Notes: generated by a model not told the origin, from the letters alone. Counted from the first letter of the stretch, positions 9,446 to 37,624 are shown. The stretch is DNA of 64,000 bases from Bacillota bacterium (GCA_012520795.1 JAAYNP010000031.1:30771-94770), one strand, 5' to 3'. Numbers and translations: made by a program.

Positions 9446-10207
9446 TTAAACAAACTTAAGTTTTGACCGGAGGGCTCTGATAGCTTGACTGTGAATCTGG
9501 CTGATGCGTGATTCGGATACGGCAAGTATATGGCCAATCTCTTTCAGGGTGAGCCCTTCATGGTAATACAGGGACACTACCAAACGCTGCTTCTCCTCAA
9601 GTTCGTCGACTGCCGCAGCCAGTTCCTGCAGCGTTTCTTGATCAATAAGTTCCTGATCAATAACTGCCTCAGGATCATTGATCGTATCGAGAAGGGTAAT
9701 AGAATCTGCGTCAGAATCGCCCGTCAGATGATCATCCAGGGACAGCAAGGAAATGTTTCTTACTTGATCGAGTGTTTCATAGTATTTCTCCAGGGGCATC
9801 TGGAGCGCAGATGCCACTTCCCGTTCAGTCGGTGTTCGGCCCAGTTCATGTTCCAATTTCATAATTGCCTGATCGATCCTTTTTGCCTTATTCCGGACGC
9901 TTCTCGGTATCCAATCGGTAGAACGCAGCCCGTCGATAATTCCACCGCGAATCCGTACACTGGCATAGGTTTCAAACTTGATATCTCTGTTCAGGTCATA
10001 TTTTTCAATAGCATCAATCAGGCCAAATACGCCATAGCTGATTAAATCGTGAAACTCTACATTATCGGGAAGATGAATAGCAATCCTGCCGGCTATGTAC
10101 TGTACCAGGGGCAGATACTCTTCAATGATCTGCTCTCTTGCGGAAAGATCATTATTAAATTTATACTGCTGCCACAGGTCAGTAAGCTCAACGCTTTCTC
10201 TATCCAT
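9446..10207 (-). CDS. sigD: flagellar sigma factor SigD/FliA (sigma-28)
   Basis: Sigma-70 regions 2 and 4 are present (...EYLPLVQYIAGR..., ...LTLKEIGHILAVSESRISQI...). I prefer the internal start MDRESVELTDLW, which gives 253 aa, because the upstream part overlaps the PilZ gene. It sits at the end of the fla operon. Confidence 0.85.
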   Translation of the reverse strand: MDRESVELTDLWQQYKFNNDLSAREQIIEEYLPLVQYIAGRIAIHLPDNVEFHDLISYGVFGLIDAIEKYDLNRDIKFETYASVRIRGGIIDGLRSTDWIPRSVRNKAKRIDQAIMKLEHELGRTPTEREVASALQMPLEKYYETLDQVRNISLLSLDDHLTGDSDADSITLLDTINDPEAVIDQELIDQETLQELAAAVDELEEKQRLVVSLYYHEGLTLKEIGHILAVSESRISQIHSQAIRALRSKLKFV

Positions 10208-10220
10208 GCCCACCAACTTC

Positions 10221-10868
10221 CTAAGCCTTTTCGTCAATCTTCTTACGATAGATTTCGATCTGGCGTTTATAAACGTATTGAATGATCTCCAGACGAGTGC
10301 GTTCATCAATATTTTCAAATATACAGCCGTACTCAAAACCATATTCGGTCCGGGCCCCACGCAAAATCCTGCAGTATAACCGGATTATCGTCCCTCCAAT
10401 TGGAAGATCTACATAGATCTGTGAACCCAACTCCAGTTCTTCCTGTGTGACACAGAGCAGCCCGCCGCCGCTGATGTCTTTAACGCGGCAGGGAATATCT
10501 CCGTTGTAGGTTGCATCAATATAAACACTGACTCTGACATAATCTCTCAGCTGGATCTTCTGCCATTCAGTCGTTAGGTTTACCAACAAGACAGGGACAT
10601 TATTGTCCCTGAAGCGCCGTTCAACCACGCCGGCAGCTTCATACCGCCCCTGATGAACCACATCATAATTGTAAAACGATATGGTCACCATCGTTTCGCG
10701 CCTGATGGGCACGATATCTCCGTCCACAATCGGAGCCGCTAACAACAAGTAGCCTCGCTCTTCATCCAGGTCTTCAACGCGTGTATGATAGACTCTCCGA
10801 TCTTCACCATCGCCGACGGCTAGTTCAACTCTTTGGTTAGGGCTAATTAGCAAAAGTATTCCTCCCAA
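10221..10868 (-). CDS. PilZ-domain flagellar brake protein (YcgR/MotI-like)
   Basis: PilZ c-di-GMP motifs (...RRE..., DISGGGLL) are present. It lies immediately downstream of flhG. Confidence 0.75.
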   Translation of the reverse strand: MGGILLLISPNQRVELAVGDGEDRRVYHTRVEDLDEERGYLLLAAPIVDGDIVPIRRETMVTISFYNYDVVHQGRYEAAGVVERRFRDNNVPVLLVNLTTEWQKIQLRDYVRVSVYIDATYNGDIPCRVKDISGGGLLCVTQEELELGSQIYVDLPIGGTIIRLYCRILRGARTEYGFEYGCIFENIDERTRLEIIQYVYKRQIEIYRKKIDEKA

Positions 10869-11703
10869 AAGGCATTCTTACATTGGCCGTTACCTGGTTG
10901 GCGCTTAGAAAAGCTTTGGTCAGCAGATTCTCAGCAACACTATACACAGAGCGGCTTGCACTTGATCCCGGATACGCCAAAAGGAAAGCCTGCTGCGCTC
11001 TCACCGCAGATACAACTTTCGGATCAAAAAACACACAGCCCACGTATTTGACTTCGCGCTGCAGGAATCGGCTTGTCATCATGTTGATCTTCTGCCACAC
11101 CAATAATCCTTCATTGGGTGAGCGGACCATATTGGCTAAAATGGTGATCTCTTTTTCCGGCTCCCGCTGCAAAATCGTTTTAATCAGCCCATAAGCGTCA
11201 GCGATACTGCTGGGCTCAGAAGTCGCCACAACCAGCACTTCGCTGACAGCCATGATTACACGGATCACTTTCCGCGCTAAACCGGCACTTGTGTCGACGA
11301 TTAAGAAGTCAAGTTCCCCGTTCAAATGGATTGCAGCGGAAATCAGGCGGTCCAAGCCCATTTGACTAATATTCGCCAGCTCATAGACACCAGAACCTCC
11401 GGCAATTACCTTAAGCCCCAGCGGCCCCTCAATTACGATATCACTTAGTTCTCTTTTTCCATTGACAATATCAAGCAAAGTGTATTTTGGGTAAACACCC
11501 AAGAGCAAATCGGCGTTGGCCAGGCCTAGATCTCCATCGAGCAATGCTACTTTCTGATTCATGTTTATTAGAGCCAAAGCCAAATTAATCGCAATGTTTG
11601 TCTTTCCCACACCGCCTTTACCGCTCGTTACGGCAACAGTGCGGGCAACAGTGCATGGATCTCGATTAACAAGGTCGCGCAGCCGCTGTGCTTGGTCGTT
11701 CAT
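10843..11703 (-). CDS. flhG: flagellar number regulator FlhG (MinD/ParA-type ATPase, YlxH)
   Basis: Deviant Walker A VTSGKGGVGKTNIAINLA; flhF-flhG synteny. Confidence 0.85.
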   Translation of the reverse strand: MNDQAQRLRDLVNRDPCTVARTVAVTSGKGGVGKTNIAINLALALINMNQKVALLDGDLGLANADLLLGVYPKYTLLDIVNGKRELSDIVIEGPLGLKVIAGGSGVYELANISQMGLDRLISAAIHLNGELDFLIVDTSAGLARKVIRVIMAVSEVLVVATSEPSSIADAYGLIKTILQREPEKEITILANMVRSPNEGLLVWQKINMMTSRFLQREVKYVGCVFFDPKVVSAVRAQQAFLLAYPGSSASRSVYSVAENLLTKAFLSANQVTANVRMPFGRNTFAN

Positions 11704-11705
11704 TG

Positions 11706-12314
11706 CTAGCCCCCCAAAACCATACTCGTCAGCTGATCATTTTCTGCAATTTCTATATCATCTGGCACACTTTGCCCATTTGTAATAAAAGCGATCGGCA
11801 CTCGGGCATAATCCGGCGCTTCAACCAAGATACCAAAACTTTGTGTTTCATCAAGTTTGGTGATGATTAGATTATCAATTTCCAGTTCCTTAAACGCATC
11901 AATAATTGCCATCAAATCGTTGCTTTTTGTTGTTGCACTAATCACTAGATACTTCTCCACACTTAGGTCATTAAAAGCCATATTCAACTCTGACATCCGT
12001 TCACGGTTATGATGGCTGCATCCATAAGTATCAATTAGGATTAAGTCCATATCTGCATAAGCATTCAATGCTGAGGCCAATCCACTGCTGGAATAAACGG
12101 CGGTTAGGGGTACATTCATAATATCAGCGTATTTTTTCAGGTGTACCACTGCTGCAATCCGGTAGGTATCCAAAGTGATCAGCCCAACTTTCTTGCGGGC
12201 AATAAGATGGTAATTCGCCGCAAGTTTCGCAATGGTGGTAGTTTTGCCGACACCGGTGGGGCCTATAAATGCCACCACTTTCTGTACTCCAGTAAACTCC
12301 CAGGGTGTATCCAC
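11706..12314 (-). CDS. flhF: flagellar biosynthesis GTPase FlhF, C-terminal NG/GTPase fragment (gene split by frameshift)
   Basis: GTG start. It carries [22 protein letters not shown] and TKLDET SRP-GTPase motifs and the FlhF C-terminus ITNGQSVPDDIEI. The reading frame continues upstream without a stop into the N-fragment region. Confidence 0.7.
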   Translation of the reverse strand: MDTPWEFTGVQKVVAFIGPTGVGKTTTIAKLAANYHLIARKKVGLITLDTYRIAAVVHLKKYADIMNVPLTAVYSSSGLASALNAYADMDLILIDTYGCSHHNRERMSELNMAFNDLSVEKYLVISATTKSNDLMAIIDAFKELEIDNLIITKLDETQSFGILVEAPDYARVPIAFITNGQSVPDDIEIAENDQLTSMVLGG

Positions 12315-12340
12315 CTGTATTAAACTGCTGATCTCAGTTC

Positions 12341-12745
12341 TCAGCTTTTTTTCAACAACTCGGTCTCGTTCCAGTCTTGTTTGGGTACCTGTTGTAAAAC
12401 CGTTTTCACAATTCTAACGGCCAGAGCATGGGACAGATCCTGGCTGGATAACAGTTGATATAGTAACTGGATGGCACTGCTGCTGTCTGCAACGCCCAAA
12501 TCCTGATCCTGAACGGCTGCCGGCTTCTGGTTATGACTAGAAGTAGTGAGAACTTGTTTTCTGCCGGGCTGGGCATTTGGATCAACTGCCCCCAATACCT
12601 CGTACTGCTTCTTGCCGAACAGCCCAAGAAAGCGGCCTTTCTTCACAATTTTGGTCTGCAGGATTATGGCATCGTCCCCAAATTCAGCCTTCATCTTCGT
12701 CACTGCATCTGGCAATGTCTCCCCGCGGAATTTTTTAATCCTCAT
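12341..12745 (-). CDS. flhF: FlhF N-terminal (B-domain) fragment, terminated at an A7 run
   Basis: MRIKKFRGETLPDAVTKMKAEFGDDAIILQTK matches the FlhF N-terminus. It ends LLKKS* at the sense-strand sequence gaaaaaaagc, and the -1 frame reads on into the GTPase fragment. Confidence 0.65.
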   Translation of the reverse strand: MRIKKFRGETLPDAVTKMKAEFGDDAIILQTKIVKKGRFLGLFGKKQYEVLGAVDPNAQPGRKQVLTTSSHNQKPAAVQDQDLGVADSSSAIQLLYQLLSSQDLSHALAVRIVKTVLQQVPKQDWNETELLKKS

Positions 12746-14804
12746 GCGGCCACTTCACCACCCCTACAGTCTGCACCTGGATTTCCGGGACAATTTCGTT
12801 ATATGACAGCACTATCAAACTGGGAAAATTCCTTTCCGTCAAGCGTCTCAGGGCCAGCCTGACCCGTGGAGAGACCAGGATAACAGGCTGGACCAGATTG
12901 TTTGCATCCAGTGCAGACTTGAGTGCGCCAAAAAGACGCTGCAGTATGCGCGGATCTATTGATATGACGTTGCCCCGTTCTGTCTGCTCAATCCCTTCTG
13001 CAATCACCGTCTCCCACTGCGGCTCAAGCGTCAGCACCAATAGAACATCATTTTCCGCATATTGACGGCAAAGCTGTCGTGCCAATGCTTCCCGCACGTA
13101 TTCTGTAAGATAATCCAAATCTTTGCTGACGGGAGCTGCATCAGCCAGTGATTCAAGAATCGTTACCAGGTTGCGGATAGGAACCTGCTCTCGCAGAAGA
13201 GTCTGAAGCACTTTTTGAATCTCGCCGATAGTCATCAGGTTCGGGACCAGTTCATTGATTACAGCTGAATAATCACTCCGCAAGCTGTCAAGCAAGGTTT
13301 GCACCTCTTGCCGGCCCAGCAACTCGTGAGCGTGATTTCGGATAGTCTCCGTCAAATGAGTTGCCAGAACACTTGGTGAATCCACGACAGTGTAGCCGTT
13401 CATTTCCGCCCGTTCTCGGTGTTCTTCAGAGATCCAGAGGGCATCAAGGCCAAATGCAGGTTCTTTTGTAGGTTCACCAGGTACTGGTTCAGTTACATTT
13501 CCCGCGTCCATGGCCAGATAATGGTTGAGCATCAGCTGCCCCCTGCCTACTTCTATTCCTTTGATTTTTATCACATATGAGTTTGGCGGCAGCTGAAGGT
13601 TATCCCGGATTCTGATCACGGGAACAATGATCCCAAGCTCCAAAGCACATTGACGTCTGATCATTGTGATGCGATCGAGCATATCTCCCCCTTGTTCGCT
13701 GTCCACCAAGGGAATCAGGCTGTAACCGATTTCCAATTCGATCATGTCAACCTGCAAGAGCGAAAGGACGCTGTCTGGTTGGCGCCTTTCTTCAAGCTCA
13801 CGCCTGGCTTCATCGGCAATAGCACTTGTCTCGACACTGGCTTGCTCCCGAAAGAGCGCATACCCCAAAAGGCCAAACAAGCCGCTGAGAATAAAAAACG
13901 GAACGAAAGGCAAGCCGGGAACCACCGCAAACACCATCAGGACCCCGCTGGTGATCATTAACGTTTTTGGACTGCTTAACAGCTGAATGTTGAGATCATG
14001 GCCAAGATTGTTTTCGCTGGCAGCCCTGGTGACAATAATTCCGGTGGCGGTACTCACCAGGAGCGCGGGGATTTGTGATACCAATCCGTCACCCACGGTC
14101 AAAAGGGTGTATGTGTTGAGTGCACGCTGGAAATCATAACCGCGGGAGAGGATGCCGATCAACAGCCCGCCTACAAAGTCTATCAAAACGATGATAATCC
14201 CGGCAATGGCGTCGCCTTTGATAAATTTCGACGCACCGTCCATGGCACCGTAAAAGTCTGCTTCCCGTTGGATCTGCACTCGCCTCTGCCTAGCTTCCGC
14301 TTCTGATATCAAGCCGGCATTGAGATCCGCATCAATGCTCATTTGTTTGCCAGGCATTGCGTCAAGAGTGAACCTAGCCGCTACTTCCGCAACCCGTTCC
14401 GAGCCTTTGGTAATAACGATAAACTGAACTATAACCAGAATCAAGAAAATAACAAATCCAACGATATAATTGCCGCCGACTACAAAATCGCCAAACGCAC
14501 TAATGATATTTCCGGCATATGCACGAAGCAGAATTAGGCGGGTGGATGAAACACTCAGTGCAAGCCGAAACAGAGTCAGCAGCAACAAAAGCGTTGGGAA
14601 AATCGAGATTTCGAGTGGCTCCCGGATGTTAATGGACAATAAGAGCACCAGTAATGACAAGCTGATGTTGCATGCAAATAGAATATCCAAAAGGAATGGC
14701 GGTAATGGCAGTACCATCATGATTACAACCATAATCACTGCAATTACCACATAGAGATCCCTGTATTGCCCTAATTTGTGCAAGGGAGCGGTACCATTAA
14801 TCAT
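12735..14804 (-). CDS. flhA: flagellar type III export apparatus protein FlhA
   Basis: 689 aa with an N-terminal 8-TM region and a large cytoplasmic domain with FlhA/LcrD family signatures. Confidence 0.95.
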   Translation of the reverse strand: MINGTAPLHKLGQYRDLYVVIAVIMVVIMMVLPLPPFLLDILFACNISLSLLVLLLSINIREPLEISIFPTLLLLLTLFRLALSVSSTRLILLRAYAGNIISAFGDFVVGGNYIVGFVIFLILVIVQFIVITKGSERVAEVAARFTLDAMPGKQMSIDADLNAGLISEAEARQRRVQIQREADFYGAMDGASKFIKGDAIAGIIIVLIDFVGGLLIGILSRGYDFQRALNTYTLLTVGDGLVSQIPALLVSTATGIIVTRAASENNLGHDLNIQLLSSPKTLMITSGVLMVFAVVPGLPFVPFFILSGLFGLLGYALFREQASVETSAIADEARRELEERRQPDSVLSLLQVDMIELEIGYSLIPLVDSEQGGDMLDRITMIRRQCALELGIIVPVIRIRDNLQLPPNSYVIKIKGIEVGRGQLMLNHYLAMDAGNVTEPVPGEPTKEPAFGLDALWISEEHRERAEMNGYTVVDSPSVLATHLTETIRNHAHELLGRQEVQTLLDSLRSDYSAVINELVPNLMTIGEIQKVLQTLLREQVPIRNLVTILESLADAAPVSKDLDYLTEYVREALARQLCRQYAENDVLLVLTLEPQWETVIAEGIEQTERGNVISIDPRILQRLFGALKSALDANNLVQPVILVSPRVRLALRRLTERNFPSLIVLSYNEIVPEIQVQTVGVVKWPHED

Positions 14805-31794: not shown

Positions 31795-31840
31795 AAGATC
31801 AAAAAAAAGAGCCGCACAAAATTGGGCTGCTCCACTCAAA
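31795..31840 (-). terminator. probable intrinsic terminator after codY followed by the flgB promoter region (approx)
   Basis: On the minus strand a GC-rich stem (GAGCAGCC...GCGGCTC) is followed by a T8 run about 40 nt after the codY stop. An AT-rich segment with weak -35/-10 candidates follows before the flgB RBS. Confidence 0.45.
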
Positions 31841-35557: not shown

Positions 35558-37624
35558 CTATTCTCCGTCTTTTCCCGGGCATGCTTTGTTGCTGCAGACA
35601 GGTCTTGACTTCCTTGTCTTGATGACAAGGTTATGGCCACAGCTGGGGCACTTTTCTTGAACCGGCCTGTACCAGCTTGTAAACTCACAATCGGGATAGT
35701 TCGAGCACCCATAGAATACTCTGCCCTTTTTGGTTCTGCGTTCGACGATCTCACCATCTTTGCAGTAAGAGCAAGGTATTCCGATTGTCTTCAGCAGCGG
35801 CTTCGTGTTTTTGCATTCCGGGTAGTTCGGGCAAGCCAGAAACTTGCCAAACCTTCCATGCTTCACCACCATATAACTGCCGCACTTGTCGCACTGTTGA
35901 TCTGAAACCTCGTCCGGCAAATCAATTTTTTCCAAATTGCGGTTTGCTTTGTCCAACAGCTGCACGAATTCTTGGTAGAAGTGATCGATCACTTCGATCC
36001 ATTCCGCCCGGCCTGCCTCGATTTCATCAAGTTTTTGCTCCATCGATGCCGTGAAGTCCACGTCAATCAACTCTGCAAAGTTTTCTTTCAGAATGTCGAT
36101 GACCACTCTACCCAGTTCCGTGGGGACAAAACGCTTTTCCGTAAGCACGACATAGCCTCGGTGCTGGATTGTATCAATGGTTGGGGCAAAAGTACTGGGC
36201 CTGCCAATACCCTTTTCTTCCAACGCTTTAACGAGCATCGCCTCGGTATACCGGGGAGGCGGCTGTGTAAAGTGCTGGTTTAACTGCAGTTCTTGACAGG
36301 CAACGGCTTCGCCTTCAGCCAATTCAGGCAGCATGCCTGTCTGTTCTTCCTTATCATCACTACCTTCGATATAAATCTTGATAAAACCGGGAAACTTTAG
36401 CTGCGATCCTGTTGCCCTAAAAGTGTAGCCGTCCACCTGAATATCTGCTGAAACACTGTCTATGACAGCAGATTCCGTTTGGCTGGCAACAAAACGTTCC
36501 CATATTAAACGGTACAATCTCAGCTGATCCCGGTTAAGATAGGTTTTCAAACTGTCAGGTGTCCGCCACACATCAGTAGGCCGAATCGCCTCATGTGCAT
36601 CCTGGGCCTGTGACTTGGACTTGTAAAAATTGGGTTTTGCAGGGACATATGGTTTGCCATATATCTCTTCAATCAGCCGCCTGGCCTCGTTCAGCGCCTC
36701 GTCAGCCACTCGGACAGCGTCGGTGCGCATGTATGTAATTAACCCGACTGTGCCTTCTTTTCCAATGTCAAGGCCTTCATAAAGTTGTTGGGCAAGCCTC
36801 ATCGTCTTCCTAGGTGCAAAGTTCAGCTTCCGTGCAGCTTCCTGCTGCAGCGTACTGGTGGTAAACGGTGGTGAGGGATGCCGTTTTCGATCTTTACGGG
36901 AAACCTTGGTCACCACCCAAGGCAGCCCTTCGATGTCTTCTCTAACCCTTACGGCATCTGCTTCGGTCTTGAGCTCAATCTTTTTGTTGTTCCATTTGAC
37001 TAGTTTTGCTTCGAACTTGGATCCGGCCAAAGTTTGGAGCACACCAATGACTGACCAGTATTCCTCTGGTACAAAACCCTCGATTTCCGCTTCCCGATCA
37101 CAGATTAACCGGACGGCGACTGATTGCACGCGGCCGGCACTAAGGCCTCGCTTTACTTTGGCCCACAACAGTGGAGAAAGTTTATAGCCGACAATTCTGT
37201 CCAAAACCCGCCTTCCCTGCTGCGCTGCTACCAGATTCTCAGAAATATGGCGGGGATTTTTGATTGCATTGACCACTGCCTGCTTGGTTATCTCTCTGAA
37301 CTCGACCCGGCATTTCTCGCCGTCAAGTTCCAAAGCCTGAGCCACATGCCAGGCTATCGCTTCGCCCTCTCGATCCGGGTCAGTTGCCAAAAGGACACGA
37401 GCGCTTTTTTTTGCAGTCTTCTTTAACTCCTGCAGGATACTCCCTTTGCCCCGGATTGTAATATACTTTGGCTCATAATTGTTTTCGACATCTACACCAA
37501 ATTGACTGCGGGGCAAATCCCTAAGATGCCCCATGGTTGCCTTGACTGTGTATCTACTGCCCAAAAACCTCTTGATGGTTCTTGCCTTGGCCGGTGATTC
37601 AACTATGACCAGGGATGTTGCCAC
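35558..37624 (-). CDS. topA: DNA topoisomerase I
   Basis: 688 aa with GTG start, an N-terminal TOPRIM domain (LVIVESPAKARTI) and C-terminal Cys4 zinc ribbons. Confidence 0.95.
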   Translation of the reverse strand: MATSLVIVESPAKARTIKRFLGSRYTVKATMGHLRDLPRSQFGVDVENNYEPKYITIRGKGSILQELKKTAKKSARVLLATDPDREGEAIAWHVAQALELDGEKCRVEFREITKQAVVNAIKNPRHISENLVAAQQGRRVLDRIVGYKLSPLLWAKVKRGLSAGRVQSVAVRLICDREAEIEGFVPEEYWSVIGVLQTLAGSKFEAKLVKWNNKKIELKTEADAVRVREDIEGLPWVVTKVSRKDRKRHPSPPFTTSTLQQEAARKLNFAPRKTMRLAQQLYEGLDIGKEGTVGLITYMRTDAVRVADEALNEARRLIEEIYGKPYVPAKPNFYKSKSQAQDAHEAIRPTDVWRTPDSLKTYLNRDQLRLYRLIWERFVASQTESAVIDSVSADIQVDGYTFRATGSQLKFPGFIKIYIEGSDDKEEQTGMLPELAEGEAVACQELQLNQHFTQPPPRYTEAMLVKALEEKGIGRPSTFAPTIDTIQHRGYVVLTEKRFVPTELGRVVIDILKENFAELIDVDFTASMEQKLDEIEAGRAEWIEVIDHFYQEFVQLLDKANRNLEKIDLPDEVSDQQCDKCGSYMVVKHGRFGKFLACPNYPECKNTKPLLKTIGIPCSYCKDGEIVERRTKKGRVFYGCSNYPDCEFTSWYRPVQEKCPSCGHNLVIKTRKSRPVCSNKACPGKDGE

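Follow-up and report, generated by a model that had tools for sequence, protein, structure and literature searches.

A probable one-nucleotide deletion allele of flhF at a coding poly-A run in digester populations of an uncultured Bacillota species

Frameshifts in motility genes caused by length changes of short coding homopolymers are known mainly from Campylobacter, Helicobacter, and Bacillus subtilis. In B. subtilis, the regulator gene swrA carries an A8/A9 tract at nucleotides 20-27; its OFF form is an insertion (A9), its switching is known to be reversible, with rates measured at 1e-4 to 1e-5, and among natural and laboratory strains the gene is frameshifted in 15.5% of 388 genomes (PMC12501158). 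Campylobacter coli flhA changes from T8 to T7 at 3e-4, with the 8-to-7 deletion as the frequent direction (PMC2831843), and phase variation of flagellar genes is likewise described for the C-tract of Helicobacter pylori fliP and the poly-A/T tracts of Campylobacter jejuni flgR and flgS (PMC2831843, PMC4811654), the latter species reportedly having no functional mismatch repair (PMC4811654).

The locus described here lies in a stretch of 64,000 nucleotides (hereafter the window) from an uncultured, 49%-GC Bacillota species of anaerobic digesters, which one record assigns to Limnochordia; an identification as Candidatus Darwinibacter was rejected, its FlhF being only 46% identical and its GC content 59%. 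Like swrA, the flhF of this species serves motility in a member of the Bacillota and has a run of eight A in its coding sequence, where a change of one nucleotide leads to a premature stop, and frameshifts are common in both genes; unlike swrA, it encodes a flagellar-placement GTPase, its tract lies in mid-gene (codons 132-134), and its OFF form is a deletion (A7). With flhA, flgR, flgS, and fliP it shares the shut-off of a flagellar gene by a one-nucleotide change in a short coding homopolymer, but those genes belong to host-associated Campylobacterota. Because the event falls into this well-known class, it implies no new mechanism; it adds an environmental Bacillota case to the class, and our literature search brought up no account of such a switch in flhF itself. 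The features of the locus are listed in Table 1.

Table 1. Features of the flhF region, in coordinates of the window.
Feature	Position	Strand	Basis or remark
Whole flhF locus, frameshifted allele	11706..12745	-	repaired translation is FlhF
Truncated flhF frame, 134 aa	12341..12745	-	ORF translation, TIGR03499 match
A7 homopolymer (T7 on + strand)	12346..12352	-	one A fewer than in the intact A8 allele; position of the deletion
Premature TGA from the frameshift	12341..12343	-	...AAA AAA AGC TGA
flhF remainder, -1 frame: end of N domain and SRP-type G domain	11706..12411	-	PF00448 match
Codon GTA (Val201; Glu201Val) in DTYRIAAV-V-HL, G2-region motif	12144..12146	-	GAA (Glu) in other contigs
flhA, 689 aa, intact	12735..14804	-	upstream, overlaps the flhF start; PF00771 FHIPEP in identical loci
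flhG, MinD/ParA-type ATPase, 286 aa, intact	10843..11703	-	ParA/CbiA families; begins 2 nt past the flhF stop

The first-pass annotation of the window had reported an ORF for an FlhF N terminus, and both its coordinates and its sequence check out. The translated product (MRIKKF...NETELLKKS*) comprises the B domain, a disordered linker, N-domain helices 1 and 2, and about a third of helix 3 before it ends in Ser-TGA; the first A of the A7 run is also the first base of codon 132, which gives TTG AAA AAA AGC TGA in the zero frame. Relative to this frame the GTPase is encoded in the -1 (=+2) frame, which is open from 20 codons before the run and crosses the junction (...VVEKKLRTEISSLIQVDTPWEF...) free of stops, as had been claimed. 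The separate GTG-start ORF reported for the GTPase (11706..12314, - strand) was also recovered mechanically; it encodes 202 aa with SRP-type GTPase motifs including ITNGQSVPDDIEI. Gene callers start it either at the GTG at 12314 (202 aa) or at a GTG 12 codons further on (190 aa), a disagreement that argues against a real independent start, and no convincing ribosome-binding site was seen by eye before the GTG at 12314. Insertion of one A into the run in silico yielded a repaired protein of 346 aa, close to the 340 aa or so estimated earlier, and exactly this protein (P0126) is present in other assemblies; its junction peptide reads ...DWNETELLKKKLR... in place of the ...ELLKKS C terminus of the truncated form. 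The earlier placement of the break at the A-run is borne out as well, the length of the run being the sole frame difference from the conspecific A8 contigs. In the public MAG the split products are on record as NLL88074.1 and NLL88073.1, both labelled "hypothetical proteins"; they would be better annotated as halves of one disrupted flhF and the gene labelled as frameshifted, and since the frameshift appears real it should not be silently "repaired."

The gene order around the break is flhA (FHIPEP), flhF, flhG (ParA/MinD-type), a PilZ protein, and a sigma-28-like factor, within a long flagellar operon. Beside the A7 flhF, neither flhG nor any other part of the operon is disrupted, and the exact flhG protein was found in contigs with either flhF allele. 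The mechanical ORFs for the PilZ-domain protein and the sigma-28-like factor (10221-10868 and 9446-10360, - strand) overlap by 140 nt; because gene callers set the start of the sigma-28-like factor further in (253 aa), we regard this overlap as a start-codon artefact of the ORF list.

FlhF is a B-N-G GTPase of the SRP family, represented by the B. subtilis structure 2PX0, and the repaired protein is typical of it in length and in its position between flhA and flhG in the flagellar operon. It scored 207.9 bits against the TIGR03499 FlhF profile, above the curated equivalog cut-off of 174.15, whereas the separate halves scored 61 and 138.4 bits, both below that value. The N-terminal part aligned with TIGR03499 positions 1-76 (E 1.8e-16) and the C-terminal part with positions 2-195 of the 196 in PF00448, the SRP54 GTPase (E 2e-40); the P-loop, DTxR, and TKxD motifs of an SRP54-type G domain are all present, the last as TKLD in the translation. 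Aligned to 2PX0 with an E value of 2e-36, the repaired protein was 99% identical to an intact conspecific protein (P0001) and 100% identical to P0126. The window allele, by contrast with 2PX0, does not encode a single B-N-G polypeptide, its chain being cut within the N domain. In an AF2 model of P0001 (mean pLDDT 87.6), a small beta unit at the N terminus is followed by a disordered linker, by the three helices of the N domain, and by the G domain. The frameshift maps near position 119 in P0001 numbering (133 in the full protein), in the middle of the final N-domain helix (114-128, pLDDT ~96-97), which would leave the N domain incomplete in both fragments. The best 120 homologues, 327-468 aa in length, are without exception single in-frame proteins that extend across the junction; the first-pass annotation had named orthologues with the N-terminal part and the GTPase as naturally separate genes as an argument against a split gene, and there were none among the 120. 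We conclude from these comparisons of sequence that the window carries a disrupted allele of a true flhF.

Conspecific contigs (at least 99.9% nucleotide identity over 4-12.7 kb, from many digester metagenomes) were collected by means of the neighboring flhG protein and the exact split and intact flhF products, duplicate records were removed, and all tract lengths were read from assembled consensus contigs. The allele counts come from the exact-protein index because junction scans of metagenome contigs gave no conspecifics: a scan for the junction with a variable gap had no match, and a protein-based scan returned only a sister species at ~76% identity. A scan of genome contigs likewise found only the sister species and distant FlhFs. 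The index contained 8 contigs with the 134-aa fragment and 13 plus 19 with the two intact forms. After de-duplication, A8, encoding the intact 346-aa FlhF, was found in 21 samples, and A7, encoding the split form, in the window and in six contigs from five samples (ERZ773356, SRR3184553, SRR5185879, SRR5185872, and JGI 3300059485) that may be partly related, their accession numbers suggesting shared projects. For SRR3184553, A7 was present in both the Logan (L016) and the MEGAHIT (L049) assemblies. Both tract lengths occurred within what appear to be the same projects (SRR5185736 versus SRR5185872/79 and Ga0499516 versus Ga0499530); a literature search for a publication on PRJNA311379 found none. 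Over as much as 12.7 kb the tract was the sole indel between A7 contigs and clean A8 contigs, and no A9, A10, or alternative-start A7 product is on record.

Two further candidate alleles were rejected. A third tract length, A6 (P0132), comes from a contig (L048) with two other 1-nt deletions, one of them in another A-run, and a second frameshift allele (P0130) comes from a contig at 1.5x coverage (L060) in which flhA is fragmented too. In the conspecific contigs L010 (ERZ2647956, 3.6x coverage), L031, and L060 (both at about 1-1.5x), the genes fliA, flhA, and flhG are broken up by several indels of 1 nt, including one in L010 at the equivalent of window position 9902; these indels look like assembly errors, and the three contigs exemplify error-prone assembly as opposed to the clean A7 contigs. 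Despite their other frameshifts, all three contigs carry A8 at the flhF tract.

Homopolymers elsewhere served as controls. Within the shared 14 kb, no other homopolymer of at least 6 nt that was recovered in the clean contigs varied in length. A coding A8 in the essential gene topA (37405-37412) was 8 in 10/10 contigs, a small control in which 0/10 against ~18-22% A7 is only marginally significant alone. An intergenic T8 between codY and flgB (31801-31808, sense/- strand) has eight T in the window and in five contigs but nine in L051 and L054. A hairpin-like GAGCAGCC...GCGGCTC, recognized by eye, precedes this run, which resembles the U-tract of a codY terminator upstream of the flagellar operon, at a site where a simple terminator scan made no call. 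Length changes are thus seen where selection allows them and are absent where they would be lethal, a pattern that fits real mutations better than sequencing noise. Every homopolymer of at least 5 nt in the 64-kb window was also screened for sites that would fuse two long frames. Ten sites were flagged, two of them antisense to the coding strand, and the remaining ones other than flhF look like ordinary gene junctions, as checked by ORF translation for ffh/next gene and fliK/flgD and assigned by eye for pyrH/frr, flhF/flhG, and fapR/plsX; the flhF tract is the only one in this screen that splits a gene. The window contains three other A8 runs, one of them coding.

In the sister species (76-79% protein identity) flhF is in frame and the tract region has an A8-equivalent length, but the sequences there are interrupted (AAAAGGATG, AAAATGAAG, and ATCCAAAAA), so the unbroken A8 run is specific to the present species. 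Judged from these alignments, A8 is the ancestral in-frame state and A7 a derived 1-nt deletion. The first-pass annotation had recommended an alignment of close relatives to see whether they carry A8; A8 was indeed present, but as a coexisting allele, and its presence does not prove an error in the window.

We consider it highly probable that A7 flhF is a genuine mutant allele that arose by an A8-to-A7 deletion and coexists with A8 in digester populations. A real inactivating mutation had been one of the options listed at first, and it is favored by the recurrence of A7, the indel-free contigs, and the homopolymer controls, inactivation itself being the presumed consequence. In the normal gene, three lysine codons following a G (TTG AAA AAA AAG) form the unbroken A8, from which replication slippage, the usual cause of such losses, would have dropped one A. 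The loss shifts the frame after Lys133 and brings translation to a stop at Ser134-TGA inside the last N-domain helix, giving a 134-aa fragment with the B domain and a partial N domain, and the GTPase domain would lack a proper start signal, leaving functional FlhF absent or present in trace amounts at most. The predicted fold suggests that the A7 allele is null or a strong hypomorph, and it may affect flagellar number or placement; translational coupling into flhG may also be weaker. Mutants of flhF in peritrichous B. subtilis stay motile, so the phenotype of flhF loss could be mild. As the assembled form, A7 is probably the majority allele in at least five samples, and a majority in several reactors would mean that it drifted or was selected to high frequency there. 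The locus would then represent a common, putative loss-of-function allele of a flagellar-placement gene in natural digester populations of one species. The frequency of A7 is compatible with mixed reactors in which correct flagellation is selected against or makes no difference, and the A7/A8 site could serve as a simple marker for loss of normal flagellation in time-series digester metagenomes.

The first-pass annotation had also offered a homopolymer miscall, in which the true sequence is A8 and A7 a sequencing or assembly error, and slippage, programmed or transcriptional, as explanations of the break. Homopolymers are classic sites of indel errors, error-prone conspecific contigs exist (A6 plus two indels in L048; L010, L031, and L060 at low coverage), and a platform-specific systematic error is conceivable, the tract lengths having come from consensus contigs. 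A miscall is nevertheless improbable, given that at least five samples, and for one run two assemblers, yielded the identical A7, that the contigs concerned never have a further indel, that the low-coverage, error-prone contigs show A8 at the flhF site, that the topA A8 and all other coding runs of at least 6 nt are constant, and that the window holds no second homopolymer-split gene. It is still harder to accept that the A7 form is functional and supplies full-length FlhF by dnaX-like -1 ribosomal frameshifting or by transcriptional slippage, an option we regard as very improbable. The A7 run with its following G does contain the string AAAAAAG, which had been likened to the dnaX slippery site (A AAA AAG), a -1 shift or an extra A in the mRNA would restore the intact protein (...ELLKKKLRTE...), and runs of this kind are known to permit some slippage that is low in level and not programmed (PMC5009743). 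In the zero frame AAA AAA AGC, however, AAAAAAG starts at the second codon position, which puts A AAA AAG out of phase for a tandem slip; the in-phase heptamer at the tract is G AAA AAA, which does not have the X XXY YYZ form of a dnaX-type site. Unlike dnaX, the flhF site also lacks a downstream hairpin signal, a Shine-Dalgarno-like element, and a conserved out-of-frame layout: the predicted folding energy of the 83-nt segment that begins with the tract is -15.6 kcal/mol, no better than the -15.45 +/- 2.78 of shuffled sequences (z = -0.05), with only a 5-bp hairpin in the prediction, no upstream Shine-Dalgarno-like element was seen when the sequence was read by eye, and no Rfam family reached its gathering score anywhere in the 64-kb window, despite the presence of genes for ribosomal proteins and translation (rpsB, tsf, frr, ffh, and rpmF). 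The in-frame A8 is the majority as well as the ancestral form, and the sister species and 120/120 homologues are in frame. As for transcription, indel bypass by Escherichia coli RNA polymerase is reported to require a run of at least 7 T, or a longer one of A, and A7 would stand at or below that threshold (PMC6260861). Runs of 9 are the usual case of bacterial transcriptional slippage (PMC5009743), and the present locus has neither the long A/T run (typically at least 9) nor the conserved out-of-frame downstream ORF expected of one, the run being A7 and the arrangement unconserved. Slippage may yield a trace of full-length FlhF, but this would amount to leakage and not a programme. Equally hard to sustain, and in our judgment the most doubtful reading, is a two-piece FlhF whose N-terminal fragment and GTPase are made separately and cooperate. 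Both ORFs are long and were called as genes (NLL88074.1 and NLL88073.1), and a GGAG was seen by eye ~8 nt before the second candidate GTG. Against this, 0/120 orthologues are split, the cut falls within a confidently predicted N-domain helix so that both pieces have an incomplete N domain, and the start of the second ORF is disputed among gene callers (202 or 190 aa).

An extension of the deletion-allele explanation, which we advance only tentatively, is that the A8 run acts as a contingency locus, a reversible ON/OFF switch for FlhF favored by selection, with which populations would change the placement or number of their flagella by A8-A7 slippage in the manner of swrA, flhA, fliP, and flgR/flgS. 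Two features usual in phase variation are present, namely a coding homopolymer of at least ~7 nt that sets the frame (A7/A8 at codons 132-134) and an ON/OFF length polymorphism within the species (A8 in 21 samples, A7 in 5 plus the window). The unbroken run was found only in the present species, the OFF form makes up ~18% of the indexed contigs, near the 15.5% of swrA (PMC12501158), A7 is associated with both alleles of the SNP at 12145 and with several flanking SNP backgrounds, and A7 and A8 occur within apparently the same projects. On the other hand, there are two states only, with no A9/A10 product on record; the tract lies in mid-gene and not at the 5' end; no reversion was observed among the consensus contigs; and an A8 is unremarkable here, with three others in the window, one of them coding. 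The combination of A7/A8 with the SNP at 12145 was considered as a four-gamete proof of recurrent mutation and was dropped: the ordinary SNP pair 14887/12145 shows all four combinations as well, and SRR3184553 gives Val or Glu depending on the assembler, so that the occurrence of A7 on several backgrounds can be due to recombination or chimeric consensus, with no need for recurrent mutation. That the species-specific A8 is a contingency tract of a free-living digester bacterium, with FlhF switching reversibly and the OFF form rising repeatedly to majority in stirred reactors, we put forward with somewhat greater reserve. If true, no flhF before this one would have been phase-variable, and motility phase variation would have been observed directly in environmental metagenomes and not in a pathogen.

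Apart from the tract, the G domain of the conspecific FlhF proteins shows variation in its G2-region motif (Table 1). Val201 is encoded in the window and in 19 indexed intact contigs and Glu201 in 13 contigs, with Val occurring together with both A7 and A8. Among the 120 homologues this position is E in 91, D in 20, Q in 7, and L in 2, and never V. The adjacent residue is His202 (12141-12143, - strand) in all conspecific contigs, whereas 113/120 homologues have Gln there (DTYRIAAVEQL), which we take to be the Gln that contacts nucleotide in Ffh/FtsY. The GTPase of the present species may be atypical or under relaxed constraint.
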